DNA of 64,000 bases from Mosigvirus mar005p1: sequence record OZ035759.1. The stretch is one strand, 5' to 3'. Of this stretch, positions 4,256 through 21,036 are shown piece by piece (position 1 is the first letter of the stretch; each line of letters begins with the position of its first letter). The position numbers and the translations under genes are program-made. The notes beneath the pieces are model-generated. The model was not told where the DNA came from. It saw nothing but the letters and a program-made list of their open reading frames with translations, and made no database searches.

Positions 4256-4440
4256 TTCCAAGGACTCCATGGTGGAGGGTCGTCATAATAAGACGCTAGG
4301 TCTTTCAGGACTTCTAACGGTAAACTAAAACCATGACGTTGTATAATATTACCAATTTCATTGACAAGTTCACCACGTTGTTCTTTAGGAGCCTCAACTT
4401 CGGACTCATCAAACATACTCATCAAGTCCATATTATTCAC
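4252..4440 (-). CDS. hypothetical protein
   Basis: 62-aa ORF, start overlaps stop of upstream gene. Confidence 0.45.
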   Translation of the reverse strand: MNNMDLMSMFDESEVEAPKEQRGELVNEIGNIIQRHGFSLPLEVLKDLASYYDDPPPWSPWK

Positions 4441-4897
4441 CGAGATAAAAACTAGCCGGTTCAGAGAATGTTTCTAGTGCTACACCTTTTGTCTTAAAAA
4501 ATTTCCAAATAGCTCGTTGCAAATGGATTAAATCTGCTAATGATGTAATAAAGTATTTTTTGGCAAAATACGTATGGTCTCGCTTTTCAAACAGGTCTAA
4601 ACGCTTTTCAGGATTCACATAAACGGCATTTTCTGTAGATTCATACCCTAAGTCCTTTATGCCTTCTTCAAGACTAAACGGAGAATTTTTAGAATGAGTA
4701 ATAGCTCCAACTCGCTCTACACGAATTTTGTAACCTTTAGGAATCTGCAATTTGCAGAATTCTTCTACGATATATTGCGGATTATTTAGACTTTTGTTAA
4801 TGAGAATAGCTATTTCTAGTGGAGTCTTATCTTCCACTGGTATATGTTTAAATGACTTGGCTTCAAGCAAATACATTTTAAATAGCATAGCATCCAT
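4433..4897 (-). CDS. hypothetical protein (T4 mrh-region position)
   Basis: 154-aa ORF in operon context. Confidence 0.55.
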   Translation of the reverse strand: MDAMLFKMYLLEAKSFKHIPVEDKTPLEIAILINKSLNNPQYIVEEFCKLQIPKGYKIRVERVGAITHSKNSPFSLEEGIKDLGYESTENAVYVNPEKRLDLFEKRDHTYFAKKYFITSLADLIHLQRAIWKFFKTKGVALETFSEPASFYLGE

Positions 4898-5076
4898 TAT
4901 AATTTCCTCGATGGTTCACCCATATAAAGTTTTACAATACGTTCGCCTTCATCTTCGACGAGCTTCTCTTCATGTTTCTGGAATTCTTTAGCCATATTCT
5001 CTTCAAGAACATCCAGCCAATCTTCTGGTCCGACACCATCATTCCAGCTTTTAAACCATTTTACTATTCTGTTCAT
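4897..5076 (-). CDS. small hypothetical protein (59 aa)
   Basis: ORF just below track threshold; ATGA overlap with upstream gene, TAATG overlap with downstream gene. Confidence 0.4.
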   Translation of the reverse strand: MNRIVKWFKSWNDGVGPEDWLDVLEENMAKEFQKHEEKLVEDEGERIVKLYMGEPSRKL

Positions 5077-5884: not shown

Positions 5885-6406
5885 TCAGTAACCATTATCC
5901 TGACGTTCAAAGTTGTGTTGGTTTTTCAAGTAGTAAAGTTTAAAGATTTCTTCTGCAGTGAGTCCAAGACCCTGGAACATATTCAGAACAAAGTGGAGGA
6001 TATCAATCATCTCGAATTTAATTTCAAGCTGGTCTTCAGGGGACAGTTCATCGATACGACGATTACGATATTCGGCATGTTGTGCTTTCCAAGGCTTCCA
6101 TACAGAGCTAGCGGCTTTTTCACCATTGCTCATACCACCAAGTGAAGTCAGCAGTTCACGGAATTCATCATCAATATAATCTTTCTGATTACGCAGCCAA
6201 TCAACAACATCACCAGCAGTAGCCAATTCATCAGGATGTTTGTTATGTTCAGGCTTGTCATTTGCCAGACGAACCTGTAAAGATTTCTGCATATCAAGCA
6301 TTACCTGCAGTGGGTCTTTATCTTCGTGAATCAGAGCATTAAAATAAGCTTCTTCTGCTTTATCAACACCAGAAATAAGTTGTGAACATTCGTTAAAGTG
6401 TGCCAT
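5885..6406 (-). CDS. 56: dCTP pyrophosphatase (gp56)
   Basis: 173 aa; colinear with T4 gp56 (MAHFNEC...LYYLKN...ARQDNGY). Confidence 0.88.
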   Translation of the reverse strand: MAHFNECSQLISGVDKAEEAYFNALIHEDKDPLQVMLDMQKSLQVRLANDKPEHNKHPDELATAGDVVDWLRNQKDYIDDEFRELLTSLGGMSNGEKAASSVWKPWKAQHAEYRNRRIDELSPEDQLEIKFEMIDILHFVLNMFQGLGLTAEEIFKLYYLKNQHNFERQDNGY

Positions 6407-7752: not shown

Positions 7753-8247
7753 TCACAACTTATTAATATTTACTTTAATTCGCTTTCTTTTCTTGGAAGG
7801 AATTTGTTCTGGACCTTTATTTACGACTGCACCTGTAGTTGTTCCTGATGCAATAGCTTGAGGACTGCCGCCTGAATCACCAGCAACCATATCCTCAAAT
7901 AAAGGGAGTTCTTTAAATATTTCTTTCTGTTGTTCTTCAGTAATGTTATAGCGTGAAGCTACAGCACTCCAGGCAGACATCATTGAGGCCATTCCATTAA
8001 GACCCGGAACAGTGCTCATCATTCGCTTCATTGAACGAACTGAAGCATGAAAAGGTGTATAAGCCGCTTTCTCTTCAGGAGTGGAAGGACGTTTAAGAAC
8101 ACTTCCACGTTCATCGATGATTTTGGCTTCATATGCTTTCCATTCGGTAAAAGGTTTTTGCATTAGTCGAATAAACTTATATGCGTAAACAGAATCTATT
8201 GTAGTGTTAATAATACCCATAGGTACCTCCTGAGTATATTTAATCAA
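7753..8247 (-). CDS. hypothetical protein (61.1 region)
   Basis: 164-aa ORF. Confidence 0.55.
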   Translation of the reverse strand: MIKYTQEVPMGIINTTIDSVYAYKFIRLMQKPFTEWKAYEAKIIDERGSVLKRPSTPEEKAAYTPFHASVRSMKRMMSTVPGLNGMASMMSAWSAVASRYNITEEQQKEIFKELPLFEDMVAGDSGGSPQAIASGTTTGAVVNKGPEQIPSKKRKRIKVNINKL

Positions 8248-8437
8248 TCACAAAGATCGCTTTATCACCGTTCGCATCTGTGACTTCATATGTAGTGCCT
8301 TCATACTGTGGAATATTCCAAATTACACCGTCATTAGCTTTTACGCTAATACGGCATTGGTGTTTTGAAACAACTTCATAATCTTCAAAACTTGTAAAAA
8401 CACTAATTTTAGAACCGGTGCAAATTGCAGTAGTCAT
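8240..8437 (-). CDS. hypothetical protein
   Basis: 65-aa ORF, overlapping stop/start with neighbours. Confidence 0.5.
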   Translation of the reverse strand: MTTAICTGSKISVFTSFEDYEVVSKHQCRISVKANDGVIWNIPQYEGTTYEVTDANGDKAIFVID

Positions 8438-8438
8438 T

Positions 8439-9098
8439 TTAACCTCGATTCATAAATGCATTAAATATTTGGTCATCAACAGAAATTTCTAATTCGACTT
8501 CAATTGCTTCGGCCTTTTCTTCAGGTGGTAATTCGTATCCACACACTACAATTTTTTCATCGATATCAAAATATACAGAAGCAATACGATTAATGTTACT
8601 TTCAGTTAAGTCTAAATCAACATCAACATCTTTTTGACCTACACTTAAAGGATAACTAATACGGGTTATTTTATTATCTTTAACAAAGAGTCCACCAACA
8701 TACTCTGTACTACGTTTAAAGTTTACACGTTTCCGAATTGAAAGATATGATGCATCTTTACCATGAGCTCGGCTCATAGGACATAATGAATAGCTAGAAT
8801 AAGAGATGTCAAATCCTACACCTTCAATATGAGCCAACGTGTCATGATTAAACCAATTATAATCATATGCCAAATCCATTATATTGTAATATGTGAAAGG
8901 CACAGGATTAACATCATATGTTGTACCTTTAAAATCTGCCCAGGCAACGATTTCATTATCTTTAACAATTACAAAAATTACACCAATATGATATCCGTTA
9001 TTATTTTCGTTCGGCGTTATATTATAACATTGTGCATTAGGAAATTTACCATATTTAAATGGTGCGTTTTTGTGCATATAATAAATCATATTATTCAC
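8439..9098 (-). CDS. hypothetical protein
   Basis: 219-aa ORF. Confidence 0.55.
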   Translation of the reverse strand: MNNMIYYMHKNAPFKYGKFPNAQCYNITPNENNNGYHIGVIFVIVKDNEIVAWADFKGTTYDVNPVPFTYYNIMDLAYDYNWFNHDTLAHIEGVGFDISYSSYSLCPMSRAHGKDASYLSIRKRVNFKRSTEYVGGLFVKDNKITRISYPLSVGQKDVDVDLDLTESNINRIASVYFDIDEKIVVCGYELPPEEKAEAIEVELEISVDDQIFNAFMNRG

Positions 9099-9384
9099 CT
9101 GTGATTTCGGTTACGATATCTTTGTTATCGAAATTAGGGTCACAATACAAAACATAGTTGTACTGCATGATACCACCAGACTTAAGTTGTTCAACAACTT
9201 TATTAACCATATTAGGACGGTCTCGTTTAGTGATGTTCATAATATCAGAGAAGATTTGTTGTTCAACATCTTCTTGATTTGCAGTCATTGACCACTCACA
9301 GAGGTCTTTATCATAACCTGCCGTAACTGGAGCCGGTGCACATGATACTGCAAGTAAGATTGCTGCCAATGATAACTTTTTCAT
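9091..9384 (-). CDS. sp: Spackle-like periplasmic protein (inhibitor of gp5 lysozyme)
   Basis: 97 aa with signal peptide MKKLSLAAILLAVSCAPA; size and position match T4 sp. Confidence 0.65.
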   Translation of the reverse strand: MKKLSLAAILLAVSCAPAPVTAGYDKDLCEWSMTANQEDVEQQIFSDIMNITKRDRPNMVNKVVEQLKSGGIMQYNYVLYCDPNFDNKDIVTEITGE

Positions 9385-9413
9385 TTTAACTCCTTAGTTG
9401 ATTTGATAGGACT

Positions 9414-9443
9414 ACTATACTATAGTCCATCTATAATGTAAAC
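9414..9443 (-). promoter_or_regulatory. T4-type early promoter upstream of sp
   Basis: Minus strand GTTTACA-~17 nt-TATAGT. Confidence 0.5.
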
Positions 9444-9447
9444 AAGT

Positions 9448-9696
9448 TTATTCTTTTTCGCGAATAATAATTACTTGTTGAGGCTGCTGAGCCGATTTCT
9501 TTTCGGCAACGATAGACCAAATTAAAGTTCCAATCCAACCAACCATCGTCCAGTTAAAGAGTAAAGATACAAAGAAGATTGCTGTTGTGCTTTTTGTGCC
9601 ACGAATAAGTGCGATTACCCAAGGCAACATGTAAATGATGATTGAACCAATACCTGCGATTAAAACTGCTACTGAACTAGCTACGAATAATTCCAT
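9448..9696 (-). CDS. small membrane protein (two predicted TM helices)
   Basis: 82-aa hydrophobic ORF. Confidence 0.55.
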   Translation of the reverse strand: MELFVASSVAVLIAGIGSIIIYMLPWVIALIRGTKSTTAIFFVSLLFNWTMVGWIGTLIWSIVAEKKSAQQPQQVIIIREKE

Positions 9697-9757
9697 GTTA
9701 ATTTCCTCTTGATTTGTTATGTTTATAATATCTTGTTTTAACTTTGGTGTAAACCAA

Positions 9758-10126
9758 TTAATTAAATTTGTTTAAACGTTCAATACACTGGACGTAGTTA
9801 TTCGCGATTTGTTTCTGGGTAGGCTCTTTACCAGTTGTTTCAACATAGCGAATGAATGCGATTTCAGTAGCCTGTAAGCAATGTTCTTTAACGCGTTGTT
9901 CTTTTGACAATGCTACAGTATCAGAGTCACGATAACGTTGAGCATGAGCATCAGCTTGAATCATTCGATTACCTACAGTAACCGGGTCTTCCACTTCAAC
10001 TTTAGGTTGGTCGTACTGTTTAACATTCGGATTGTAAATCAGTTGGCCAACATTATTAGGGATAAAGCCATGGGCACCACAACCGGTTAATCCAAATACC
10101 ATTGCTAAAGCGATTAATTTTTTCAT
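9758..10126 (-). CDS. putative lipoprotein
   Basis: Track ORF trimmed to internal start MKKLIALAMVFGLTGC (lipobox LTGC); 5' extension overlaps promoter. Confidence 0.55.
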   Translation of the reverse strand: MKKLIALAMVFGLTGCGAHGFIPNNVGQLIYNPNVKQYDQPKVEVEDPVTVGNRMIQADAHAQRYRDSDTVALSKEQRVKEHCLQATEIAFIRYVETTGKEPTQKQIANNYVQCIERLNKFN

Positions 10127-10149
10127 TTCAATTTCCTCTGTAGTTGATA

Positions 10150-10186
10150 GAAAGATAGTAACACAGTATTTGGTGCTTGTAAACAC
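10150..10186 (-). promoter_or_regulatory. T4-type early promoter upstream of lipoprotein gene
   Basis: Minus strand GTTTACA-17 nt-TTACTAT. Confidence 0.4.
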
Positions 10187-10399
10187 CTATTTTAAACTTT
10201 TGCGAAATTTGCGTTTTTCCTGACGAATCTGTCGTTTAGTCGGACGTACAGCAAATTTAACGAAGTCCACTTTACCATGTGGAAACTTTTCAGATGCTTC
10301 ACAGTCCATCATTAGTTCCCATCCTTCCAGAATAAGAGCTTTCCATTGTGTAGTTGATGCAAATTCGTATGTTGATGGTTTAAACACAGTTGAATACAT
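10187..10399 (-). CDS. hypothetical protein with C-terminal VRPTKRQ-R-basic motif
   Basis: Track ORF trimmed to ATG preceded by GAGGA SD; paralogue of 39362..39532. Confidence 0.45.
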   Translation of the reverse strand: MYSTVFKPSTYEFASTTQWKALILEGWELMMDCEASEKFPHGKVDFVKFAVRPTKRQIRQEKRKFRKSLK

Positions 10400-10400
10400 A

Positions 10401-10592
10401 TTATCCTCTGAAATCAGCTTCAAAAACTTTCTCGTCATTAACAAATGCTTTAACTAATGCGTTGTTCACTTCAGCAAGTTGTACCGCAACCCACTCGATT
10501 TCTTCGCGATCACCTGATAACATGATATCTTTAGTGAACATCTCACCGCTTTTAAACCAGCCAATAAAAGTAACTTTAGTTAATTTGCTCAT
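10401..10592 (-). CDS. dmd: Dmd-like (discriminator of mRNA degradation) small protein
   Basis: 63 aa from ATG with GAGGAAAT SD; FIGWFK...MFTKDI resembles T4 Dmd as recalled; position next to sp/41. Confidence 0.5.
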   Translation of the reverse strand: MSKLTKVTFIGWFKSGEMFTKDIMLSGDREEIEWVAVQLAEVNNALVKAFVNDEKVFEADFRG

Positions 10593-10906
10593 ATTTCCTC
10601 GCAAAAGGCCCATTCAGCATGATATACTGTAGCGCCTTTAGTATCATTTAAACAAACCACGTCTACCGGAGAAATTACTCGATAGAGACGTGGTTCACCT
10701 CCATAAGAGCGTGCCGCTCGTCCTGCATAAATCTTTGCTAAACCGATATCTTCAGTAAAGAATACACGATCCAAGTTTTTCTTACGTCCGGTTTCAGACA
10801 GAACTCCTGTTTCTTCAGGAGGACAAAGCATGTTTTCGATGTTAGCTGAACTACTTGAACCGTGATAAAAAATCTTAAATTCTGCTTTACAATCGATGGT
10901 TTTCAT
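10589..10906 (-). CDS. hypothetical protein
   Basis: 105-aa ORF, ATGA overlap with dmd. Confidence 0.55.
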   Translation of the reverse strand: MKTIDCKAEFKIFYHGSSSSANIENMLCPPEETGVLSETGRKKNLDRVFFTEDIGLAKIYAGRAARSYGGEPRLYRVISPVDVVCLNDTKGATVYHAEWAFCEEI

Positions 10907-10922
10907 TTTGTTCTCCAGTAGT

Positions 10923-10951
10923 TGATAGGTCTATAATAACACAACTACTGG
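10923..10951 (-). promoter_or_regulatory. T4-type early promoter
   Basis: Minus strand GTTTACTTCTCC...17 nt...TATTAT, then GGAGAA SD. Confidence 0.55.
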
Positions 10952-10961
10952 AGAAGTAAAC

Positions 10962-11336
10962 TTAAAAACGTAATTTAGATATATCTGCGTTGATTTCGTT
11001 TTGGTTTGCGTCGTATGCAATTAAACGAACCGCTTTAGATGGGTCATTCAATGCATAGAAATGATGGAACATTGCTCGAACGATATCACCATTTACGAGT
11101 TCTACCTGGATAGGAGAACCTTTTTCGAGTTGGAAATGTTCATAAGCTTTGATGGTTCGTAGATAATCAAGTTTTTGATTTCCGGCTCCAACGATTTGTA
11201 CGATACGTTTGCCCATGTTTTCCATACGAGATACAATAGTTTTAGGAGCAAGAATAACGTAGGTTGCCAGTGGAGAAACTACTTCAACAGTTGTGTTTTC
11301 GGTGATTGCAGTAAAAATTGCTTGAGACATATTCAT
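10962..11336 (-). CDS. hypothetical protein
   Basis: 124-aa ORF. Confidence 0.55.
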   Translation of the reverse strand: MNMSQAIFTAITENTTVEVVSPLATYVILAPKTIVSRMENMGKRIVQIVGAGNQKLDYLRTIKAYEHFQLEKGSPIQVELVNGDIVRAMFHHFYALNDPSKAVRLIAYDANQNEINADISKLRF

Positions 11337-11365
11337 AATGTTTTCCTCTTGGTTAGTGTAAGTAC

Positions 11366-11395
11366 ATCATATCATGCCTAGAGGAAGATGTAAAC
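11366..11395 (-). promoter_or_regulatory. T4-type early promoter
   Basis: Minus strand GTTTACA-18 nt-TATGAT. Confidence 0.45.
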
Positions 11396-11398
11396 CCC

Positions 11399-11424
11399 GA
11401 AAGGAGACCGAAGTCTCCTTTTTA
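11399..11424 (-). terminator. UUCG-tetraloop hairpin after gene 41 (possibly bidirectional terminator)
   Basis: GGAGAC-UUCG-GUCUCC; U-run weak on minus strand (UUUCGGGGUUU), strong T-run on plus strand. Confidence 0.5.
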
Positions 11425-12867
11425 TTAAAATTTTAACTCGTTGGCTAAGCTATCTAGGTCAGCACGTGTTGCTTTGGCTTTACCTACGCGTTCCGTACGA
11501 TTCACCTCTGCCTGACGCATCTGAGCACCTGCGTTTTCATTTACTGTGTTAGGTGTGTTCATGCCTTCTTGCTCAATCTCAATCCATTTCTGGTTGCCTT
11601 TACGTACACCCATCAGGAATTTATTCCACTTATTCTTATCGCCATATCGTGATTTGATTTGTTTGATAAGTTGTTGTTCAGCTTGTGCAAGTTCTTCGGT
11701 TTCAATTACAGCCAACATGAAATCTGCCGTTGCTGGTAAACCTGCTGATTCTGCAATATCACTCATGTTCATATCCGAAGCATCCCATGCTGCACGTCCT
11801 ACTTGAGCTGCAGTCCATAGAACTGTTTCAGATTCTACTGCTAATGCACGAAGTTCTTCTGCGATAGCTTTAACTAATGTGTAGCTATTTTCAGTGTAAA
11901 CTCTGATACGACAAGACCCACAAATACCTAAGTAATCAACCATGATTACAGATGGCACAAAGTTCTTCTTAAGTTTTAACTCATTAAGCAATGCACGAAA
12001 TGTATTAGCATTAGCTCCACCAGTAGGATACTGTTTAACTACTAAACGTCCTAATGTGGATTTTGAACGCCATTTTTCCATCTTGGCTTTATATTCAGCA
12101 TAAGATACGTTACCATCATCGATATCATCGAGCGATACATCAAGCATGTTTGCATCTATACGCTTAGCACAAACTTCTTCAGCCATTTCCATGGAAATAT
12201 AAAGAACATTATGACCTGTTTGAAGATAATCTGCAGCAAGTGAACAAAGGCCTAAAGATTTACCAACGTTAACACCGGCCATTAAAACATTCAGTGTACC
12301 GGTTTCAGCACCACCTTTAGTGATTTTATTCAGAATGTTTAATTTGAACGGGACCTTACGTGCTTTGTTCAGATAAGAAAGCCAGCGTGCTTCATAGTCT
12401 TCCATCCAGTCATGCCCAACATAACTATCAAACGAAATTGAAAGTGCTTGACGCATAATATCAGGAATAGCTCCTACGTCAGGCATTTTCTTGTTACGTT
12501 GTTCTGGAGGTAGTTCAGCATTAGACTGAATCTCAATGATTTTGGATGTAGCATTATACATCGCTTTTTGCTGGACATATTTCTCAGTTTCTTTAACCAA
12601 CCATTCATGGTCTTCAGGAGTATCAGCCAATTTTTCAATTAGGTCTGAAGTTCCTTTATATTCGGCTTCAGTTAAAGAACTGTTATCTAAAGCCACCTTT
12701 AATGCATTGATAGATGGCATTGCATTATATTCGTTAACGTGGCTCTTTATAATTTTAAAGACATTTTTTGCCGGTCCACGCTCAAAATACTCAGAATCCA
12801 TATAAGGCCAGACCTTAGAAAAATAAGCCTGGTCATATACTAGATGAGACAAAATAATTTCTACCAC
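11425..12867 (-). CDS. 41: Replicative DNA helicase gp41 (DnaB-like)
   Basis: 480 aa; Walker A GVNVGKS; size and position as T4 gp41. Confidence 0.9.
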   Translation of the reverse strand: MVEIILSHLVYDQAYFSKVWPYMDSEYFERGPAKNVFKIIKSHVNEYNAMPSINALKVALDNSSLTEAEYKGTSDLIEKLADTPEDHEWLVKETEKYVQQKAMYNATSKIIEIQSNAELPPEQRNKKMPDVGAIPDIMRQALSISFDSYVGHDWMEDYEARWLSYLNKARKVPFKLNILNKITKGGAETGTLNVLMAGVNVGKSLGLCSLAADYLQTGHNVLYISMEMAEEVCAKRIDANMLDVSLDDIDDGNVSYAEYKAKMEKWRSKSTLGRLVVKQYPTGGANANTFRALLNELKLKKNFVPSVIMVDYLGICGSCRIRVYTENSYTLVKAIAEELRALAVESETVLWTAAQVGRAAWDASDMNMSDIAESAGLPATADFMLAVIETEELAQAEQQLIKQIKSRYGDKNKWNKFLMGVRKGNQKWIEIEQEGMNTPNTVNENAGAQMRQAEVNRTERVGKAKATRADLDSLANELKF

Positions 12868-12876
12868 GATAACTCC

Positions 12877-13239
12877 TTAAAAGAATTTAAATTTTTTCTT
12901 GGTCCGTTCATTAAAAGCTTGTTGTACTTGCATTGTAACACATTTTTCAACATGTGGTGCAAGTTCTGCTTTTCTGTCCTGGTCAAGAACTGCAAAGTCC
13001 ATTACGATTTTACCATCAACCCAGTCTAGTTTTGTAATATAGACTATATGATGAGAACCGTCTTCAAGCGTAATCAGAATCTCTTGAATGACATTTTCCA
13101 TTGCCGAACGGATAATTTTAAGAGATTCATTAAACACTCGTTCTTTGCGAATGTCTTCCCCTTCCGAAGAAGGGGATTCATCAACGATTTCTAGATTTAA
13201 ATCATCGAGATTATTCATCGAAATCTTCCATTTCGTCAA
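12877..13239 (-). CDS. 40: hypothetical acidic protein at gene 40 position
   Basis: 120-aa ORF between 41 and uvsX; assignment positional. Confidence 0.45.
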   Translation of the reverse strand: MTKWKISMNNLDDLNLEIVDESPSSEGEDIRKERVFNESLKIIRSAMENVIQEILITLEDGSHHIVYITKLDWVDGKIVMDFAVLDQDRKAELAPHVEKCVTMQVQQAFNERTKKKFKFF

Positions 13240-14383
13240 GGTCGTTTTCTATATCTGCTGCAGACGGAGCATCAGAAGTTTTAACCGGAACTTTAGTTGT
13301 TGCTTTGCAATTAATAAGGTCATTAACAGCGTCATCAACTTCTTTAATAGAAGAGATAGCACCTAGTTTATATTTAGTTTCAATTGCATCTCGGAAAGGT
13401 TTGTGTTTAAACAACGGTCCCCAGAATTCTACACAATCAGTAGCTTTAGCACGCCATGATTTTTCTTCACGAATCATTTCGCCTGTTTCTTCGTCAAGGA
13501 ATTCGCGAGCATACCACCCGGCTTTAGGCTTAACTACAAATCCAATTTCAGTTGCCATTTCTAACAAGCCACTGAATGGGTCGATACCACCATCAAAATT
13601 AACCGTGATTGGGAAAGTAGATTTTTCTTTAACGGTACGAGATTTTTCCGCTTTCAACGTGAAGTCATAACCGGTCAATTCTGTACCTTCTTTAACCTGA
13701 CGTTTAGAGATAAAGAATACAGTGTTAGCAGAATAAAGAATACCTGTACCACCACCCATAATCTCTTTAGGATATAGTCCGCCGATTTCCATTGCGGTAT
13801 GGTTGATTGCAACACATGGAATATCTTTAATAGTCAGATAAGGAGTCACAATGCGGAACAGAGATTTAAGTGCCTTAGCACGAGACATATCACCTACGAC
13901 TTTCTCGTTCAATGCATCTTCGGTTTCTTTCTTAGATGCAGTATTACCGATTGAATCGATAAAGATAATAACTTTATCACCGCGTTCAATAGCGTCAAGC
14001 TGATTAGTCATATCAACTTTAAGTTGTTCGACGGACTGAATTGGTGTATGAACTACACGGTCTAAATCAACACCCATCGAACGAAAATAAGATTCTGAAG
14101 CACCGAATTCCGAATCATAGAACAAACAGATTGCATCTTTATATTTCTTCATATATGCTGCAACCATGGTCAGCCCAAACAATGTTTTAAAATGTTTAGA
14201 AGGAGCAGCAAAAATAGTTAAGCCTGATTGCAACCCAGCATTCAGTGCACCACCTAATGCAATATTCAACATCGGAATACGAGTAGGGACTTCATCACGA
14301 TTATTAAACAGCTTAGACTTAGTCAAGTCTGCAGTCATTTTAGAAGTAGAAGCTTTAATCAGACGAGATTTTAAATCAGACAT
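13211..14383 (-). CDS. uvsX: UvsX recombinase (RecA-like)
   Basis: 390 aa; RecA-fold P-loop region; size matches T4 UvsX (391 aa). Confidence 0.88.
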   Translation of the reverse strand: MSDLKSRLIKASTSKMTADLTKSKLFNNRDEVPTRIPMLNIALGGALNAGLQSGLTIFAAPSKHFKTLFGLTMVAAYMKKYKDAICLFYDSEFGASESYFRSMGVDLDRVVHTPIQSVEQLKVDMTNQLDAIERGDKVIIFIDSIGNTASKKETEDALNEKVVGDMSRAKALKSLFRIVTPYLTIKDIPCVAINHTAMEIGGLYPKEIMGGGTGILYSANTVFFISKRQVKEGTELTGYDFTLKAEKSRTVKEKSTFPITVNFDGGIDPFSGLLEMATEIGFVVKPKAGWYAREFLDEETGEMIREEKSWRAKATDCVEFWGPLFKHKPFRDAIETKYKLGAISSIKEVDDAVNDLINCKATTKVPVKTSDAPSAADIENDLDEMEDFDE

Positions 14384-14481
14384 TGTATTTTTCCATAGGC
14401 ATCATTATATTTTACTCATGTTTAAAAGATAAGACGATTATATACTAATGGTTATACAGCATTTAAAACTTTAAATGGCTC

Positions 14482-15030
14482 TTAACGAGCCCATTTGATA
14501 ATTTCTGTAATCAAATAATTACGTTCGCTTGCATTAAATCCTATAACTTTGTTAGCACCATCATGATTAAGTAATTGATACGTTTGGATTTCGTTATGAA
14601 TTGCAAACTCTTCAAAATGTGAAATGACTGTATTAAAACCGAATGAAGACAAAGTAATAAGGTCGTCTTCAAAACTTTCAGTCATTTCGTTACGTGTTAA
14701 AATAATTGTGAACACATCATGGTTTTGGCAAAGACGAATATAATCCTGTTCATAAACGTCAAGAACCGAGTCCGCATCTTGTCGAATACGTCCGTAAACC
14801 CAGTTACTAATATATCCACGGTCTAATAGATAAATCTTAGTAGGGTCTAAATAATTCAACATCGTTTCGAAACAGCCAACTTCGTTTCGAGACTTAACAT
14901 CGAAACGCCCATCAACTGTTCGTTTAGGGAAATCAATCTTTACATATCTTTCACTAATTTCCATTATGTCATTAATGAAAGTTGTTTTACCAGCATTATC
15001 CGGGCCATCTACTAAAATAATTTTAGCCAT
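14482..15030 (-). CDS. P-loop nucleotide/nucleoside kinase-like protein (thymidylate-kinase fold)
   Basis: 182 aa; P-loop VDGPDNAGKTT and DRG(Y) motif; not present at this locus in T4. Confidence 0.55.
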   Translation of the reverse strand: MAKIILVDGPDNAGKTTFINDIMEISERYVKIDFPKRTVDGRFDVKSRNEVGCFETMLNYLDPTKIYLLDRGYISNWVYGRIRQDADSVLDVYEQDYIRLCQNHDVFTIILTRNEMTESFEDDLITLSSFGFNTVISHFEEFAIHNEIQTYQLLNHDGANKVIGFNASERNYLITEIIKWAR

Positions 15031-15031
15031 T

Positions 15032-15931
15032 TTATTCCTCGATTACGACATCTTCGTATTTAGGTATATTATACGGCGAAGAAATTAAAGCATTAAAGTA
15101 GATGAACTCGCCAAGACCTGGATGGAATACTTCTTCAGGATTTTCGAAATATTGAATCTTCGGACGTCCTTTAAGAATTTGATAGTACTCAGTTTTAGTT
15201 GGTTTAAAAATTCGAATCAGCGCTTCTTCAGGATACTTATTTCTGTCGAAGCTATTATTTGGATCGGTTATATAAAGCGGTTGACCTAATTGAATTGCAC
15301 ATTCAACCACTTGTTCAAAACGATAACATGGGTCACTAATTCGAAATGGATGAAAAATACCATCTAGATGAATAGGAGCCAAATCACCTACAAGACGCTG
15401 CATGATGGAAGGACGTATAACTTTCTGGGTTATGATAATCTTATTACCATCGGCACCCGCGTTAACCAGCACTTCCTTTTGACGTTTATTCAACACAGTA
15501 GTTTGAAGTGAACGATTAACAGACAACATGTCGGTTTTTAAGAATTCGTCAATATAAAAACGTGGTTTATTAGGGTCTGCAGTGATATTGAAATTGAATT
15601 CTACATCAAAAGCGCCGTCATATCCAGTGATATCTGTGATTAGAAAATCACAATCATAATAAGCAATTAATGAATCAACCACAAATTCATTTTCAGACCA
15701 AAAATATTTACGAGTGTTATACGCGTTATCTTTATACCATAATGGAACAAACTTAAATTCCGGGAAAAGACGTTCACATTCTTTAATATCAGATGCATTA
15801 CGTGGATATGTAATCACATCACCCGGATTAGCACGGTGCAAATGAAGTTGGAAGTTGCCATCCTTAAGGATAGCATACTGTCCAGTTTCATAAGACCGCA
15901 TACTCAAGATTGGTACGCGGAAAATAGCCAT
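15032..15931 (-). CDS. hypothetical protein occupying the beta-glucosyltransferase slot (candidate DNA glycosyltransferase)
   Basis: 299-aa ORF between kinase and gene 42; no recognisable similarity to T4 Bgt; function inferred from context only. Confidence 0.45.
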   Translation of the reverse strand: MAIFRVPILSMRSYETGQYAILKDGNFQLHLHRANPGDVITYPRNASDIKECERLFPEFKFVPLWYKDNAYNTRKYFWSENEFVVDSLIAYYDCDFLITDITGYDGAFDVEFNFNITADPNKPRFYIDEFLKTDMLSVNRSLQTTVLNKRQKEVLVNAGADGNKIIITQKVIRPSIMQRLVGDLAPIHLDGIFHPFRISDPCYRFEQVVECAIQLGQPLYITDPNNSFDRNKYPEEALIRIFKPTKTEYYQILKGRPKIQYFENPEEVFHPGLGEFIYFNALISSPYNIPKYEDVVIEE

Positions 15932-16647
15932 TAGTCAAGGAATCCTTTAACATAATCAAAATCACGTTCAAACACATGGGCACTTACCATGGTATGAGTA
16001 TAATCACCAACTTCTACACCACATTCGTTAGCGATATAATGAAGTAATTTTCCTTGGAGATAAAAATCTAACTGCATAACAACAGCACAGTTCTGAGAAC
16101 GCATATGACAGTGGGTATAAAGCTTACCATCACGAATATAATAAGTCACTGAGTCAGTACATGGATATTCAAGCGTTTCGTCCGAATCAAGCAAAGCCTG
16201 ATCAGAACTTTCTAGAATTTGGAACACAACTCTTCGAGAGTTAGGCTTCTCTTTAAGTTCTTTTAGAAGAGCTGGTAATTGGGCCGCAATGCGAGGACCA
16301 TAGAAAGTGTTGAAGTTCGCCGGCAAAACATCTGATTTTGGTTTAGAAATAAATTTAGCGACATTAGGATATGCCTTAAACGCTTCTTCTGCGTTGGTAC
16401 CACCAGAAATCATAAACTTCCAGAAGTCTTCGGCATATTCATAAGAGATGCGGTTAATACGTGGGTCGGTCATTTTGAATGATGATGGAGTGTCAACAAC
16501 TACTGTCATAGACCCAATTTCATTACAACGTCCAATACGAGAATCAGTTACGAATTCCGGGTTTTCTAAAATTTCACGATTGACTGCTTTAAATGCGGCT
16601 TGAAAATCTGCGGCTTTGATATATTTCATTGTGTTATGTTTTCCCAT
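15931..16647 (-). CDS. 42: dCMP hydroxymethylase homologue (thymidylate-synthase fold)
   Basis: 238 aa; position after uvsX; ...CHMRSQNCAVVMQLDFY... resembles the T4 gp42 core as recalled. Confidence 0.7.
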   Translation of the reverse strand: MGKHNTMKYIKAADFQAAFKAVNREILENPEFVTDSRIGRCNEIGSMTVVVDTPSSFKMTDPRINRISYEYAEDFWKFMISGGTNAEEAFKAYPNVAKFISKPKSDVLPANFNTFYGPRIAAQLPALLKELKEKPNSRRVVFQILESSDQALLDSDETLEYPCTDSVTYYIRDGKLYTHCHMRSQNCAVVMQLDFYLQGKLLHYIANECGVEVGDYTHTMVSAHVFERDFDYVKGFLD

Positions 16648-16654
16648 GTTTACC

Positions 16655-16685
16655 TCAATACAATTTATTATATACTCAATTCGTA
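16655..16685 (-). promoter_or_regulatory. candidate MotA-dependent middle promoter upstream of gene 42
   Basis: Minus strand AGCTTTA (MotA-box-like) -11 nt- TATAAT. Confidence 0.35.
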
Positions 16686-16689
16686 AAGC

Positions 16690-16929
16690 TTATTTGAATT
16701 TCTTGGCAATGTTGATATAACGTAAAGCTTCAGCATCGATATTTCCAAGAACACTATGAAGAAATGCATCAGCATAGTATTCCAATTGAACAGGTTCTTT
16801 AATCACTTTAGCCGCTTTAGTTTCAAACAGGCCCATCAGGGCCTTTTTAAGAATTTGTTCGTTGCTGTTAATTTTAATAGTCAAAATCTCTTCATTAAGT
16901 TGGTGGTTAAAAGTTTTTCTAGAAATCAT
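16690..16929 (-). CDS. hypothetical protein
   Basis: 79-aa ORF. Confidence 0.5.
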   Translation of the reverse strand: MISRKTFNHQLNEEILTIKINSNEQILKKALMGLFETKAAKVIKEPVQLEYYADAFLHSVLGNIDAEALRYINIAKKFK

Positions 16930-18086
16930 TCCGGGTACCTCAAAGCGTCATCAGAGTTAGTTATATCAATAATAGATATAGAGTTTTCTGCTAACCCGTT
17001 TTTAGATAATTGACGTTTATAATATCTTTCACAATATGTACACGTCGTCCCGCAGATCTCATTAGCACAATCGAAATCTGGATGTCTGAACCACCTTTTT
17101 TCTAAAAAGCCATCTAACAAAGAGGTTTCAATATTTACTGTATGTGAAAACTCAGTTTCGTTTTCAAGAGTGAAAATAGTCTCTAAAGGCTTCCACAGTT
17201 CTAACAAATTACCTTCAAACTTTTCAGAAGCGTATGCTTCAAGAACTTTCAAAATGTAGTCTGTGCTACCTGTACGTCCTGAAACTTTGAATTGAGTGAT
17301 ACCAATATCATTATAAAGTTTCAAATCTTGAGGACGAACAAAACGAGTTCTCAACCAGTTAAATGGGTCTGTATCACGAGCTTTAATACAGTGTTGCATT
17401 GGATATCCGTTTAAGGATTTAGCATCATCAGCTGTAACATCAGTACTATGGAAAATATAGCAAGAGTCACGATAGCTACAATGTGTTGTATACCCTTTAC
17501 CAGCATTAGAACAGAACTCATTTACAAGAACTTCAAATATTATATTGTTCTTATTGCAAAACTCTGCTGCACGCTTCAGGAAAGAAACTGAACGGTTCTT
17601 ATGAATTCCACAGCAGACCTTTTTGATATTATATTGGTCATGCAAGTATTTGATTTGAGTTACAGCATCGACATGTAGAATTGTTGAAACTTCAATCTCA
17701 ATGTCTTTATTGACTTCACGAACAATTTCCATAACAACAGGGTTAGCGATAGTAATACGCCATACGCCTATTGACCAAAGATACTGAACATAATCCTGAA
17801 TAGCTTTCTTCTTCCACTCAACTAGTTCTCTTTTTGAACCAGGATTTATCGTGTTGAGTGTATAGTTAAAGCAAATACCTAATTCGTTACAACGTTTAAC
17901 GTAATCTTCTAACATCTTTTTGTCAACGTCAGGAAGCCTAAAATCAGGTCTGGCTGCTACAAAAGCCATTTCTCTTGTAGAGCCGTATACTTCATTTATC
18001 AAGCTATTAGGATAAGTTTTATTGAGCTCTACGATTTTATCAAGAAGAGCTAAATCAAAATTCGTTCCGATTTTAAAAGTATTCAT
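16926..18086 (-). CDS. hypothetical Cys-rich protein (possible metal/Fe-S binding), modification-cluster member
   Basis: 386 aa; C-terminal C-x4-C-x3-C-x2-C (CANEICGTTCTYC) plus several other Cys. Confidence 0.55.
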   Translation of the reverse strand: MNTFKIGTNFDLALLDKIVELNKTYPNSLINEVYGSTREMAFVAARPDFRLPDVDKKMLEDYVKRCNELGICFNYTLNTINPGSKRELVEWKKKAIQDYVQYLWSIGVWRITIANPVVMEIVREVNKDIEIEVSTILHVDAVTQIKYLHDQYNIKKVCCGIHKNRSVSFLKRAAEFCNKNNIIFEVLVNEFCSNAGKGYTTHCSYRDSCYIFHSTDVTADDAKSLNGYPMQHCIKARDTDPFNWLRTRFVRPQDLKLYNDIGITQFKVSGRTGSTDYILKVLEAYASEKFEGNLLELWKPLETIFTLENETEFSHTVNIETSLLDGFLEKRWFRHPDFDCANEICGTTCTYCERYYKRQLSKNGLAENSISIIDITNSDDALRYPE

Positions 18087-18147
18087 TTTTTTTTTTGCAT
18101 CCCACGTTAATTGATGCGATGGTTTTTTGCAGGTCTTACTTAAATTA

Positions 18148-18549
18148 TTATAGATTCGGTTTATACGATTTAAATGTTTCGAATTCGCCTTTATTCATAA
18201 GAGCTTTGAATTCGTCAGGACGCATAGCTTTGTCGTCGATAATCCAATCATATACTGGTTTATGTGTTAGCAAATTATGGTACTTCAATCCAATGTTTGC
18301 TAAGTTCTGAATCAGACTCGGGAGAATGTCAATTGCTATACGACCAGGACCTACTGACTTCATACCGCGAGCAGTGTAAAGCGTTATGGTATGCCCTGCA
18401 TCATACAGGGCATTAATGGCAGACACCATTTCGACGTCCGGCTTGAAGTTCACGTAATCACGATTGTTATTCCACTCTGTTATACAATCATCGACATCAA
18501 AACAAAGATTAAGCATGTTTTCTACACGGCGCATTAGATTCGTTCCCAT
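18148..18549 (-). CDS. HAD-superfamily phosphatase
   Basis: 133 aa; N-terminal DxDx(T) motif FDVDDCIT. Confidence 0.6.
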   Translation of the reverse strand: MGTNLMRRVENMLNLCFDVDDCITEWNNNRDYVNFKPDVEMVSAINALYDAGHTITLYTARGMKSVGPGRIAIDILPSLIQNLANIGLKYHNLLTHKPVYDWIIDDKAMRPDEFKALMNKGEFETFKSYKPNL

Positions 18550-20219
18550 TGATGAGTGATATCGCCACCGATTGGACGATAGGAAACACCAGTTTCTTTA
18601 TCAGTTAGTACCCATTTACCAGGATTTTTTGTAATAAGAGTAGCCGTTACAGGTTCTGCTACGTCATAACTAATAGAGCCGTCCTGAAGTACACGGCCCA
18701 TGTTACGTAATTGCTTAGTCAGAAGTTCCATACCTTTATAATATGCGGCTACCGCTTTAAGTGGATTATTCTTGAAATAACCACCTAATGCAATCCAGAT
18801 AATTGCCACTGCCAAATGATGATACTCGTTAAACGAACTCATCTTTCCATATTTGTAAACTAATGGATTGATGTTAATAGTCACATTACAAGTTGTTTCA
18901 TCAATAGTAAACTGTCCCCAGGTCGGATTAGCGTTGAATTCATCATAACCTGAAACAGCGTAAAGCACTTTAGCTTCATCATACAATTTTGGTCCGTAAA
19001 TCTTGGTTTCACCAAAATATCCACGAGGGTCGATAAACTTGACTTCGCCATTATCAGTAATCATAGTATTACTGAAGTTAGGGTCACCATGAATAACAGA
19101 GTACTGTCCCTGAGAACGGTTATGATAACGAATAAGGTGTTCTAAAGCTTGTTTCAGCATTGGCTTCAGACGTCCAATCTTAGTGTAGTTCACATGTGTG
19201 ATTTTACCAAATGAATCAATCAGCGGTTGAATGCTTTCACAACGATCAATAACTTTCGTATAGAATTCTTTAGTGAAATCACGACGGACAGTTTCAGGAC
19301 TTACAAAATAAGTGTCTGTGCTGAATTTCAGTGCATCTAAAATTGCATCAACAATTTGTGGACGAGCAAGACTTGATTTGGATTTAATATATTCAAATGC
19401 CGGCTTACCTTTAATGCGTTCCATTTCAAAGTTATTTTCATTAACAGAAACTAACTGAGGAACTGAATCTGATTTCACTTTAAGATACCACGAAATCTCA
19501 TCTTTCTGAAGAGCTCGACCCTGTTCGGTTAATGCGAATTTAGTTACAGTTTCTTCGCCAATTTCAACTGCATTAAAACTACGATTAAGTTCACGAACTT
19601 CATGAGCCTTTTCAAGTTTAGGCATATCACCTAAATCAATTAGATTCATAAGCTCTGATTTATTGAATGCGCCACTGTAAAGGAATTCTACGAAATCACG
19701 TCCTTTGCAGTATTCATGAATTTCCTCATCAGTAGAACCCATGTAGAATTCCCAGTCTTTGAACTGATAAATTCCTACAACATTACCGCCTGTTGCACCT
19801 ACATTAGTGATATTTTCACCGTCGAAATTATATCGACATTCGTCACCCTTAACATAGATTGCGTTAACATTCCAAGACCATGAACCAAAATCGGGAATAA
19901 TATCACACCAGTTAACAATTACGTTATGGCCGTCTAAATCTTTGTGTAATTTGGCAAGAGCATAAGCAGAACCATACGCTTCATCAACTGTACGAATAGT
20001 CACATTGAACCCTTCTTGCTCACAATAAGCTCGAACAGTTTCAGCAAATTTTGAATGAACTACTACAATAATTTCATCTGCGCCAAGGTCAGAATAAATT
20101 GTATACAAATTGCTCAGAATAGTGTCTTGTTTATAGTTAACAAGCACCTTAGGAATATGATGCGTTATTGGATACAAACGAGTTGCCAGCCCAGCACCAA
20201 GAATAACAGCTTTTTTCAT
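18534..20219 (-). CDS. bifunctional sugar-1-phosphate nucleotidyltransferase / kinase-like phosphotransferase
   Basis: 561 aa; N-terminal ILGAGLATRL...PK.L (RmlA/GlmU-type NTase); C-terminal VIHGDPNFSNTMI (APH/choline-kinase-like). Confidence 0.65.
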   Translation of the reverse strand: MKKAVILGAGLATRLYPITHHIPKVLVNYKQDTILSNLYTIYSDLGADEIIVVVHSKFAETVRAYCEQEGFNVTIRTVDEAYGSAYALAKLHKDLDGHNVIVNWCDIIPDFGSWSWNVNAIYVKGDECRYNFDGENITNVGATGGNVVGIYQFKDWEFYMGSTDEEIHEYCKGRDFVEFLYSGAFNKSELMNLIDLGDMPKLEKAHEVRELNRSFNAVEIGEETVTKFALTEQGRALQKDEISWYLKVKSDSVPQLVSVNENNFEMERIKGKPAFEYIKSKSSLARPQIVDAILDALKFSTDTYFVSPETVRRDFTKEFYTKVIDRCESIQPLIDSFGKITHVNYTKIGRLKPMLKQALEHLIRYHNRSQGQYSVIHGDPNFSNTMITDNGEVKFIDPRGYFGETKIYGPKLYDEAKVLYAVSGYDEFNANPTWGQFTIDETTCNVTININPLVYKYGKMSSFNEYHHLAVAIIWIALGGYFKNNPLKAVAAYYKGMELLTKQLRNMGRVLQDGSISYDVAEPVTATLITKNPGKWVLTDKETGVSYRPIGGDITHQWERI

Positions 20220-20260
20220 GTTGAAGTCCTCGTTGGTAAGTAGGAGTATTGTACACTATT

Positions 20261-20404
20261 CTAGTTAAAGCATTCATACTTTGCTTGTAGTCCAATCATA
20301 ATCCATCCAATTACAAGTGTTGGAATCATTACTGGAGCCGTTAAGCTCCAGTAGATAGTCATGACAAGCATCAATAGTAAAAGTCCTATTGTTATTGCTT
20401 TCAT
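20261..20404 (-). CDS. small hydrophobic peptide (47 aa)
   Basis: ORF below track threshold; ATGA overlap with SIS gene stop; two TM-like segments. Confidence 0.3.
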   Translation of the reverse strand: MKAITIGLLLLMLVMTIYWSLTAPVMIPTLVIGWIMIGLQAKYECFN

Positions 20405-21036
20405 TGTTCGCCTCGTAACATGGCACCTAGTGCACCGCCTGGATGGAACTTAAGGAAATCATTAGAGGTAAATCCACGTTCAGACGAAAGGTTGATAGCG
20501 AACGTATCGATAAGCGCTAACAACAATGTAGTAGACATTGTCGGAGCTAAAGAGTTCTCGTCAACTTCTACCGCGATACCGGTACAGAACGTATAATCAA
20601 AAAGAGCTTCGTATTCTTGTGGAATGTCAGGGTTACAATGTAACAGAATCTGTTTAACCTGAGGACGAATCATACGAAGATGCTTAGCAACACCTATCAT
20701 TTCTTCAGTCTTACCAGAACGACTGATGTGAACTAATACATCATTAGGTGCAATAAATCCTGCGTCGCCATGAGAATAATGCCCAGTGTTCAAGTACATA
20801 CTCGGGATACCGAGTGAAGCAAATGTCTCAGAAGCTTTAGTTGCGATATTAGCGTTCTTACCAACACCTGTAATAATTACACGACTTTCATAATTACTCA
20901 GTCCAGGGCGACGAAGAGTTTCAAGAATAGCATTATATCGGGCCGGGTTTTGACTAATTACTTTAGCCATAGTGGCAAGAGATGAAGCTTGTTTTACGAT
21001 TGCGTCAATAGCGATAGTGATTGGTGTAGTTTTCAT
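20401..21036 (-). CDS. SIS-domain sugar-phosphate isomerase (arabinose-5-P/phosphoheptose isomerase-like)
   Basis: 211 aa; SIS motifs GVGKNANIA...VHISRSGKTEE. Confidence 0.7.
   Translation of the reverse strand: MKTTPITIAIDAIVKQASSLATMAKVISQNPARYNAILETLRRPGLSNYESRVIITGVGKNANIATKASETFASLGIPSMYLNTGHYSHGDAGFIAPNDVLVHISRSGKTEEMIGVAKHLRMIRPQVKQILLHCNPDIPQEYEALFDYTFCTGIAVEVDENSLAPTMSTTLLLALIDTFAINLSSERGFTSNDFLKFHPGGALGAMLRGEQ

Follow-up and report, generated by a model that had tools for sequence, protein, structure and literature searches.

A probable arabinosyl-5-hydroxycytosine DNA hypermodification cluster in a Mosigvirus genome, and a candidate oxygen-independent pyrimidine hydroxylase encoded within it

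Between uvsX and gene 43 of Mosigvirus mar005p1, an RB69-like phage, lies a block of genes (positions 14482-21036 of the 64-kb stretch of sequence record OZ035759.1 that was analysed, hereafter 'the window') that, judging from its sequence, is very probably the arabinosyl-5-hydroxycytosine DNA hypermodification cluster of Mosigviruses, equivalent to gp45-gp55 of phage RB69. The published arabinosyl-5-hydroxycytosine (ara-5hoC) cluster with which the block is identified is already known from three experimental papers that appeared in 2025-2026, and what remains of interest in the block is a module formed by a cysteine-rich protein of the U32 family and, in related phages, a chorismate mutase. 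The U32 protein has a somewhat better than even chance of being an O2-independent, prephenate-dependent enzyme that hydroxylates C5 of dCMP or of DNA cytosine, a reading suggested by its family membership, its conserved cysteines and its gene neighbourhood.

The block DNA is 98.6% identical to that of Escherichia phage ChristianSchoenbein (Bas46) and 98.1% identical to that of NicPhage, and at least 80% of it is carried by 151 phage records, so that it cannot be regarded as a chance feature. The RB69 proteins p045-p055 were all matched at 96.7-100% identity (tblastn), and the flanking genes stand in RB69 order, with 41, 40 and uvsX on one side and 43, regA, 62 and 44 on the other. The RB69 open reading frames (ORFs) 46 and 47, like 52 and 53, correspond to single ORFs in the window (299 and 561 amino acids, respectively); both splits in RB69 have been attributed to sequencing errors (for 52/53 in PMC6024577), and the uninterrupted frames found here support that explanation. 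According to a preprint by the group of Mahler et al. (2025), Bas46 DNA carries 5-arabinosyl-arabinosyl-hydroxy-cytosine; gene-essentiality data for Bas46 were sought in a phage transposon-sequencing preprint, which reports proof-of-concept insertions only. An earlier description of this DNA, made from the letters of the sequence and their translations (the original prediction), had proposed a DNA-hypermodification and nucleotide-sugar module of RB69 type, and the identity to RB69, Bas46 and NicPhage bears this out. The seven ORFs that it named are present on the minus strand with the positions and lengths given, the motifs that it singled out (DGPDNAGKTT, DRG, DVDDCIT and HGDPNFSN) are all found in the translations, and its fold calls agree with family scans (Pfam, PHROG, NCBIfam); its count of seven genes overlooked ORFs of 79 and 47 amino acids, both annotated in relatives, which bring the block to nine.

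In 2018, Thomas et al. reported arabinose in RB69 DNA, named the modified base arabinosyl-hydroxymethylcytosine (ara-hmC), and listed ORF003c, ORF53_52c and ORF055c as pathway candidates (PMC6024577). Subsequently, Lee et al. (2026) observed a base fragment at m/z 128.05, which corresponds to 5-hydroxycytosine (5hoC), and not at the m/z 142.06 of hydroxymethylcytosine (hmC), and the RB69 modification was established as beta-D-Araf-(1-3)-alpha-D-Araf (Araf, arabinofuranose) in an ether bond to C5 of 5-hydroxy-dC (PMC13326640). NicPhage DNA was likewise found to contain 5-ara-dC and 5-ara-ara-dC, and the 2018 ara-hmC assignment was called erroneous (PMC13390438). The acceptor base is accordingly 5-hydroxycytosine with an ether-linked arabinofuranose, as tandem mass spectrometry and nuclear magnetic resonance (NMR) of RB69 DNA indicate, in place of the hydroxymethylcytosine originally supposed for the window.

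The base hydroxylase, like the DNA chemistry, has experimental backing in near-identical relatives: RB69 gp48 makes 5-hydroxy-dCMP (5hodCMP), incorporates 18O from 18O2 and co-purifies with flavin (PMC13326640), and for the homologue in phage HY126 a crystal structure with a flavin cofactor and an in vitro reconstitution have been described (He et al. 2026, as relayed in PMC13326640). The 238-residue protein of the window is 98.7% identical to RB69 p048, 97.9% identical to HY126's own copy, and departs at 6 of its 238 residues from PDB entries 9iqc and 9ir2 (E 8e-161), which are probably the HY126 enzyme, because the HY126 copy is so close to the window protein and because an HY126 glycosyltransferase belongs to the same 9iq* deposition series. 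Where the original prediction saw a ThyA-fold homologue of dCMP hydroxymethylase, the ThyA fold holds (Pfam Thymidylat_synt, 2e-15) and the predicted activity becomes that of an O2-using 5-hydroxy-dCMP synthase. Alignment with E. coli ThyA and T4 gp42, both of which carry D169, shows that C146 is kept and that the window protein has the changes L143E, D169N and N177D; the second of these is a predictor of 5hodCMP synthases (Lee et al., PMC13326640). The full signature of those synthases (N169, C146, an acidic residue at 143, and D177) is present in the window protein, the features of gp42-type enzymes (D169 and close similarity to gp42) are absent, and T4 dCMP hydroxymethylase does not appear among the 60 of 106 PDB matches listed for it. 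Genes for hydroxylases of this ThyA type occur in 373 phage records, including 57 from Acinetobacter phages and 20 from Rhizobium phages.

The competing view, which makes the ThyA-fold protein a dCMP hydroxymethylase and has arabinose pass from NDP-arabinose onto hmC, draws on the protein's membership of the ThyA family, on the position of the gene (in the place of T4 gene 42), on the label 'dCMP hydroxymethylase' in many GenBank records, and on the report of Thomas et al.; we consider it very improbable, since the mass of the base fragment, the attachment of arabinose to C5 through oxygen, the incorporation of 18O2 by gp48, the Asn at ThyA position 169, and an identity of 25% to gp42 all speak against it, and it has already been refuted for RB69 and NicPhage.

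The trio of proteins assigned to the UDP-arabinofuranose branch (a SIS-domain protein, a kinase/nucleotidyltransferase fusion, and a HAD phosphatase) is complete in the window and 96.7-99.7% identical to its counterparts among RB69 p051-p055. The SIS protein (96.7% identical to p055) matches the SIS (8e-10), KpsF/GutQ (9e-32) and KdsD (4e-30) families and PDB entries 3etn (1e-24), 5uqi (2e-22) and 2xhz, an arabinose-5-phosphate (A5P) isomerase (2e-18). The 561-residue fusion spans RB69 p053 (98.2%) and p052 (99.7%), with an NTP_transferase match over residues 3-99 (8e-10), weak APH/choline-kinase-like matches over residues 308-409 and a match to PDB 1jyk (2e-5), and the HAD protein is 98.4% identical to p051, with matches to PDB 9iqw (E 9e-87) and to a subfamily of capsule biosynthesis phosphatases in NCBIfam (4e-13). 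The kinase/pyrophosphorylase and phosphatase steps, too, are backed by experiments in near-identical relatives: HY126 AfhE converts Araf5P to Araf1,5P2 and makes UDP-arabinose, and the HAD enzyme AfhF strips the 5-phosphate to turn Ara-1,5-bisphosphate into Ara-1-P (He et al., as relayed in PMC13326640). A start from ribulose-5-phosphate through a SIS-type A5P isomerase, with activated arabinose placed onto a modified cytosine, had been anticipated and agrees with the RB69-type identity; a route in which the sugar is dephosphorylated and then salvaged had also been anticipated, and gives way to the reported order, which runs from A5P through Ara-1,5-bisphosphate and Ara-1-P to UDP-Araf (He et al., in the account given by PMC13326640).

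It might be argued that the sugar genes form an auxiliary module for host lipopolysaccharide/Kdo or capsule precursors, with no role in DNA, inasmuch as the top family matches bear the names KpsF/GutQ/KdsD, 'capsule biosynthesis phosphatase' and GlmU/MurU-like nucleotidyltransferases, and two of the proteins fall in the PHROG category 'moron, auxiliary metabolic gene'. That explanation is the least probable of those considered, given that arabinose is covalently attached to the virion DNA of near-identical phages, that the sugar genes are interleaved and translationally coupled with those of the base hydroxylase and a GT-B transferase and travel with them across many phage genera, and that AfhE and AfhF make UDP-arabinose, as the relayed work of He et al. 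has it.

The 299-residue protein, formerly left without assignment along with the transferase itself, has a GT-B fold, which places a transferase inside the block; its gene adjoins that of the hydroxylase, as in the clusters of RB69, HY126 and Bas46 type. Lee et al. propose gp46:47 as arabinosyltransferase 1 and gp3 as arabinosyltransferase 2 (PMC13326640). The earlier observation that glucosyltransferase homologues are missing stands: searches of the 64 kb with T4 alpha-gt and beta-gt (tblastn) gave best E values of 1.3 and 4.8. The 182-residue kinase (98.9% identical to RB69 p045; PHROG 761 'thymidylate kinase', 3e-45) found no close relative among solved structures, its counterpart is listed as a 'nucleotide kinase' from fold matches only (PMC13326640 Table 1), and its gene is present in the cluster in 15/15 T4-like loci examined. 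From this fold and conserved position we infer that it acts on a modified dNMP, most likely 5hodCMP, or arabinosyl-5hodCMP if the first sugar is added before replication.

The 386-residue protein belongs to the U32 family (Peptidase_U32, 7e-11; U32-type TIM-barrel fold), of which the characterised members RlhA, TrhP and UbiU/V are O2-independent, prephenate-dependent hydroxylases; the product of RlhA is 5-hydroxycytidine at position 2501 of 23S rRNA. The phage protein represents a separate subfamily. Its cysteines follow the pattern CX10CX5CX23C (C192, C203, C209 and C233, invariant in 36 sequences), with a C-terminal CX4CX3CX2C (C340, C345, C349 and C352), in place of the CX6CX15CX3/4C of the characterised members (UbiU/V, TrhP, RlhA). 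A direct MAFFT alignment with E. coli UbiU, UbiV, RlhA and TrhP proved unreliable in the cysteine region and was set aside in favour of profile-profile alignment (hhalign), in which, on our own reading, C203, C209 and C233 align with UbiU C169, UbiU C176 and TrhP C197/RlhA C196, respectively. The U32 gene turned up in 221 phage records, never below 80% identity, with 10 named enterobacterial host genera and with Shewanella among the matches listed; such conservation suggests strong purifying selection on the protein.

A comparison of cluster proteins across genera indicates that U32 is the most conserved of them (the set at 80% identity or more includes Shewanella phage Thanatos), with enterobacterial phages sharing approximately 76-85% identity in the hydroxylase, and the first transferase down to approximately 44-74%.

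Chorismate mutase yields prephenate, on which the characterised U32 hydroxylases depend. In related T4-like phages, the small gene that lies between the U32 and ThyA-like genes encodes a genuine AroQ chorismate mutase: six such proteins, encoded by phages of Klebsiella, Erwinia, Yersinia, Shewanella, Proteus and Morganella, reach CM_2 scores of 32.8-46.8 bits where the cut-off is 27, and share alignment columns with invariant R, R, K, E, S and Q, which seem to represent the catalytic residues of AroQ enzymes. The gene occurs in 54 phage records (tblastn), adjoining ThyA-like or U32 genes among the matches listed, and those records include phages LC53 and 92A1, whose DNA is reported to contain arabinosyl-5hoC (PMC13326640).

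The corresponding slot in the window is occupied by the 79-residue ORF, which is 98.7% identical to RB69 p049 and restricted to Mosigviruses, where many copies are truncated to 47-58 residues; HY126 has at this slot a 40-residue ORF followed by a 160-nt gap. That this ORF is a diverged chorismate mutase was considered and rejected (no Pfam match at E up to 10, an hhalign probability of 0.2% against the phage chorismate mutases, and 17-21% identity in a poor alignment), and it may instead be a decaying or replaced gene.

To examine the U32 gene outside the T4-like phages, 47 loci were collected by a scan of IMG/VR, comprising 15 T4-like and 32 distant loci (the latter forming 24 clusters at 90% identity), and co-occurring genes were counted within approximately 10 kb on each side. 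The T4-like loci combine U32, the first glycosyltransferase and the ThyA-like gene in 15/15 cases and carry chorismate mutase in 13/15. A glycosyltransferase resembling the first arabinosyltransferase (AraT1-like) was present in 23/32 of the distant loci, and in 20/22 of those with at least 5 kb on both sides; a nucleotidyltransferase-kinase was found in 16/32, a SIS gene in 9/32, chorismate mutase in 10/32, DAHP synthase in 6/32, and one or other of the last two in 12/32. A ThyA-family gene was detected in only 1/32 of them, and this one (L143/D169/N177) is an ordinary thymidylate synthase, so that none of the 32 carries a ThyA-type hydroxylase within that distance; that this absence is an artefact of sensitivity was ruled out by the use of both phmmer and hidden Markov model searches at E up to 10. 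The base-proximal transferase family can act only where the base offers a hydroxyl acceptor, and where there is no ThyA-type hydroxylase another source of that hydroxyl is needed; at these loci it is U32 that adjoins the transferase gene. One locus (L015) presents, in order, an AraT1-like glycosyltransferase, SIS, nucleotidyltransferase-kinase, U32, DAHP synthase (237 bits, compared with 63 as KDO8P synthase) and epimerase; in four others the AraT1-like gene directly precedes U32, its product being 24-27% identical to the 299-residue protein (tblastn E 3e-8 to 3e-14). Distant U32 homologues, at 40-58% identity, lie on phage-like contigs with genes for PolIII-alpha, primase, RecA, SSB and the like, and at some loci their neighbours include genes for dCMP deaminase, thymidylate kinase, dNK, NT5C and nucleoside deoxyribosyltransferase.

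Several of these loci display arrangements of their own. A 60.9-kb contig from SRR33454321 (L024, positions 7777-16179) encodes an AraT1-like glycosyltransferase, U32 and a TAGT-type glycosyltransferase (a weak Pfam match), then a dCTP deaminase/dUTPase and UDP-galactopyranose mutase, with a Gly_transf_sug protein upstream, and its gene content suggests a glycosylated hydroxy-pyrimidine system of another kind, centred on U32. Two PolIII-alpha contigs, one of them 466 kb in length, carry, in this order, dCMP deaminase, U32 and a conserved protein of approximately 250 residues (L012, 7447-9939; L016, 7504-9826); the latter protein has no Pfam match and is 58% identical between the two contigs, no AraT1-type glycosyltransferase was found at either locus, and dUMP or dCMP may serve as substrate for U32 in this setting. 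A third arrangement (L013/L014, 8001-14360) contains a pair of U32 paralogues (47.5% and 22% identity to the protein of the window) separated by NT5C, NMN transporter, dNK, AlaRS-like and radical SAM/SPASM genes, with a gene resembling nucleoside deoxyribosyltransferase after the second paralogue and Dockerin and GH43 genes nearby.

The principal alternative for the U32 protein is that it does not hydroxylate the base at all, and acts instead on the sugar, on host RNA (as do TrhP and RlhA) or as a peptidase; we regard this as a serious contender, with a chance somewhat below even. The label given to its counterpart on the strength of fold matches only is 'sugar or heterocycle reductase' (PMC13326640 Table 1), the U32 gene of distant phages often lies near the nucleotidyltransferase-kinase and SIS genes as well as near the transferase, and the ThyA-type enzyme alone suffices to make 5hoC aerobically. 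Against this stand the ties, in the literature covered, of all characterised U32 members to O2-independent C-H hydroxylation (with RlhA yielding 5-hydroxycytidine itself), the translational coupling to U32 of chorismate mutases with conserved catalytic residues across the 54 phage records, the flanking of U32 by DAHP synthase in other lineages, the pairing of U32 with the base-proximal transferase family in distant loci that have no ThyA-type hydroxylase, and the position of other close homologues among genes for dCMP deaminase, dNK, NT5C and thymidylate kinase; a peptidase-type neighbour or substrate was not evident in the loci examined. On balance, the sequence evidence leans modestly toward the protein being the founder of a subfamily of phage pyrimidine C5 hydroxylases, dependent on prephenate and independent of O2, whose substrate would be a deoxynucleotide or DNA.

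A number of observations weigh against these readings, both of the block as a whole and of U32 within it. The assignment of the window rests on 97-100% identity to characterised relatives. A gp1-type dNMP kinase lies outside the window (tblastn of the 64 kb), as does the second arabinosyltransferase: RB69 ORF003c found no tblastn match in the window (best E 1.0), an absence that reflects the boundary of the window and not the genome, since ORF003c is situated at RB69 2520-3620, approximately 6-7 kb before the point at which the window begins. The individual transferases of Acinetobacter phage DLP3 were inactive on 5hoC-DNA, and whether the first arabinose is added to the mononucleotide or to DNA was left undecided by the authors (PMC13326640). 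With respect to U32, the third canonical iron-sulfur (Fe-S) position has no cysteine (an invariant C192 lies in an adjacent 10-residue insertion), and the block contains no chorismate mutase, nor a remnant of one in any frame, so that a Mosigvirus would rely on host PheA/TyrA for prephenate. Some phages possess the cluster without U32, namely E. coli Dhakaviruses, among them UP19, which also lacks chorismate mutase, and Acinetobacter phages. Acinetobacter is a strict aerobe. The cluster of its phage DLP3 is among those without U32 (PMC13326640). Finally, as to novelty, the literature covered, to which the full texts of He et al. (2026) and Mahler et al. (2025) did not belong, links neither chorismate mutase nor prephenate nor U32 to phage hydroxycytosine, and it is rather unlikely, though by no means negligibly so, that one of those two papers has already described the function of U32.

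The pathway that we propose would begin with the dCTPase gp56, a listed pathway member (PMC13326640 Table 1), which would remove dCTP and supply dCMP for hydroxylation at C5 by the ThyA-fold enzyme with O2 and its co-purifying flavin. Kinases would then raise 5hodCMP to the triphosphate, a gp1-type dNMP kinase having been shown to perform the first step and the thymidylate-kinase-like enzyme of the block presumably assisting, and the phage polymerase would incorporate 5hodCTP in place of dCTP. In parallel, the SIS isomerase would turn ribulose-5-phosphate into arabinose-5-phosphate, the kinase domain of the fusion would phosphorylate the latter at C1, the HAD phosphatase would take off the 5-phosphate, and the nucleotidyltransferase domain would yield UDP-arabinofuranose. 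The GT-B enzyme would place the first alpha-arabinofuranose on the 5-hydroxyl, and a transferase of the RB69 ORF003c type, encoded ahead of the window, would add the second sugar.

Within this scheme, the Mosigvirus U32 protein would duplicate the ThyA-type enzyme under aerobic conditions and be needed when O2 is lacking, and in T4-like phages of facultative anaerobes it would back up that synthase in the way that nrdAB is paralleled by nrdDG and UbiIHF by UbiUV. The window encodes nrdH, nrdG and nrdD (35213-37870, minus strand; 81-88% identical to T4), so that the phage is equipped for anaerobic dNTP synthesis, yet the sole characterised route to 5hodCMP needs O2. Many T4-like phages would secure the oxygen donor through a chorismate mutase of their own, and in distant phages, jumbo-sized contigs among them, DNA glycosyltransferases of the same family would depend on U32 as their sole hydroxylase.

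Such a function would carry several consequences. RB69-like phages exchange every cytosine for arabinose-decorated 5-hydroxycytosine, and a U32 hydroxylase, if real, would explain how they replicate in the anoxic gut despite a complete replacement of cytosine that otherwise requires O2. It would also make dCMP a small, soluble and commercially available candidate substrate for U32/prephenate hydroxylases, and would imply that glycosylated hydroxy-pyrimidines arise independently of any ThyA-type enzyme in many uncultured large phages, which the D169N signature, the current predictor of 5hoC phages, would miss. For annotation, hundreds of Mosigvirus records bear labels such as 'dCMP hydroxymethylase', 'peptidase' and 'phosphoheptose isomerase', which are either incorrect or uninformative, and the name 'ara-hmC' should cease to be propagated.

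The arrangement of the block is summarised in Table 1. Its ORFs overlap or are separated by spacers of at most 61 nt; a scan of the block for promoters and terminators returned 23 and 3 matches, respectively, compared with 27.3 and 3.7 expected from shuffled sequence, that is, at or below chance, and the composition profile shows no break in GC content or skew that would set the block apart. The 47-residue ORF overlaps the end of the SIS gene, and RB69 p054 matches it at 100% over 36 residues.

Table 1. Genes of the block, and the dCTPase gene encoded elsewhere in the window
Feature	Position	Strand	Remarks
Thymidylate-kinase-fold P-loop nucleotide kinase, 182 aa	14482-15030	minus	RB69 gp45 equivalent
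GT-B glycosyltransferase, 299 aa	15032-15931	minus	RB69 gp46:47 equivalent; proposed first arabinosyltransferase
ThyA-fold O2-dependent 5-hydroxy-dCMP synthase, 238 aa	15931-16647	minus	RB69 gp48 equivalent
79-aa ORF	16690-16929	minus	RB69 ORF049c equivalent
U32-family Fe-S-type protein, 386 aa, Cys-rich	16926-18086	minus	RB69 gp50 equivalent
HAD-type phosphatase, 133 aa	18148-18549	minus	RB69 gp51 / HY126 AfhF equivalent
Nucleotidyltransferase + APH/choline-kinase-like kinase fusion, 561 aa	18534-20219	minus	RB69 gp52:53 / HY126 AfhE equivalent
47-aa hydrophobic membrane-type ORF	20261-20404	minus	between the SIS and nucleotidyltransferase-kinase genes; RB69 p054 match
SIS-domain putative arabinose-5-phosphate isomerase, 211 aa	20401-21036	minus	RB69 gp55 equivalent
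dCTPase gp56	5888-6406	minus	outside the block, same pathway; 97.7% identical to RB69 gp56

An ORF of the same size as the 47-residue ORF is annotated at its position in Bas46, KLB31, Virsaitis27, LC53 and HY126, so that both size and position are kept in Mosigvirus, Kanagawavirus and Winklervirus phages; the counterparts in KLB31 and LC53 are annotated as transmembrane, which would place a membrane peptide inside a nucleotide-sugar operon. Genes of Seg-like or homing-endonuclease type were also encountered in related clusters: one lies between the HAD and U32 genes in both Virsaitis27 and LC53 (Winklervirus), that spot is taken in Tegunavirus fHe-Yen9-01 by an unannotated ORF of equal size, and in Proteus phage PM2 (Bragavirus) a homing endonuclease sits between U32 and chorismate mutase. 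The insertions span positions 4352-4990 of locus L011, 4195-4833 of L023, 424-1062 of L018 and 1432-2115 of L020. The arabinosyl-5hoC cluster thus appears to be a target of mobile endonucleases.

In phage T4, the interval between uvsX and gene 43 holds segA, b-gt, 42, imm and imm.1. The original prediction had imm replaced by the block; in fact, a homologue 64% identical to T4 Imm is encoded at 9448-9696 and imm.1 at 9773-10120 (both on the minus strand), the two adjoining the spackle gene as in RB69 and Bas46, so that imm has been relocated. In the Dhakavirus UP19, imm still lies beside gene 43. The T4 system of hmC glucosylation comprises the gp56 dCTPase, the gp42 dCMP hydroxymethylase, the gp1 kinase, and alpha-gt and beta-gt; its base acquires a hydroxymethyl group through folate chemistry, whereas that of the window system would acquire a hydroxyl group with the aid of O2 and a flavin, through an enzyme bearing D169N, and its sugar is glucose instead of arabinofuranose, a difference that obliges the phage to make its own NDP-sugar.

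The clusters of RB69 (gp45-gp55), HY126 (Afh) and Bas46 resemble that of the window in their genes, their order and their position between uvsX and gene 43, and differ at the strain level only. More distant are those of Acinetobacter phage DLP3 (gp76-83) and Rhizobium phage RL38J1, which have in common with it the triad of kinase, glycosyltransferase and ThyA-type hydroxylase, and both of which are without U32 and chorismate mutase; DLP3 likewise has SIS, HAD and nucleotidyltransferase-kinase genes and attaches a third arabinose by means of extra transferases (PMC13326640), and RL38J1 has UDP-galactopyranose mutase and glucosyl/galactosyl-type transferases (PMC13326640). The A5P isomerases KdsD and GutQ resemble the window protein in their SIS domain and in their matches to solved structures; their profiles extend over 321-328 positions, compared with 211 residues in the window, and since only the SIS part (approximately profile positions 41-202) is matched, the protein falls under the full-length cut-offs.

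For the U32 protein, the closest analogy is provided by ubiquinone synthesis, where the flavin/O2 enzymes UbiI/H/F are paralleled by the U32 Fe-S proteins UbiU/V with prephenate as oxygen donor, and TrhO and TrhP constitute a further dual system of O2-dependent and U32/prephenate enzymes. In the cluster of the window, similarly, a flavin-associated hydroxylase that uses O2 is accompanied by a U32 protein, to which relatives add a prephenate-making enzyme. RlhA performs the same base chemistry but on RNA; the presumed substrate of the phage U32 protein is a deoxynucleotide or DNA.

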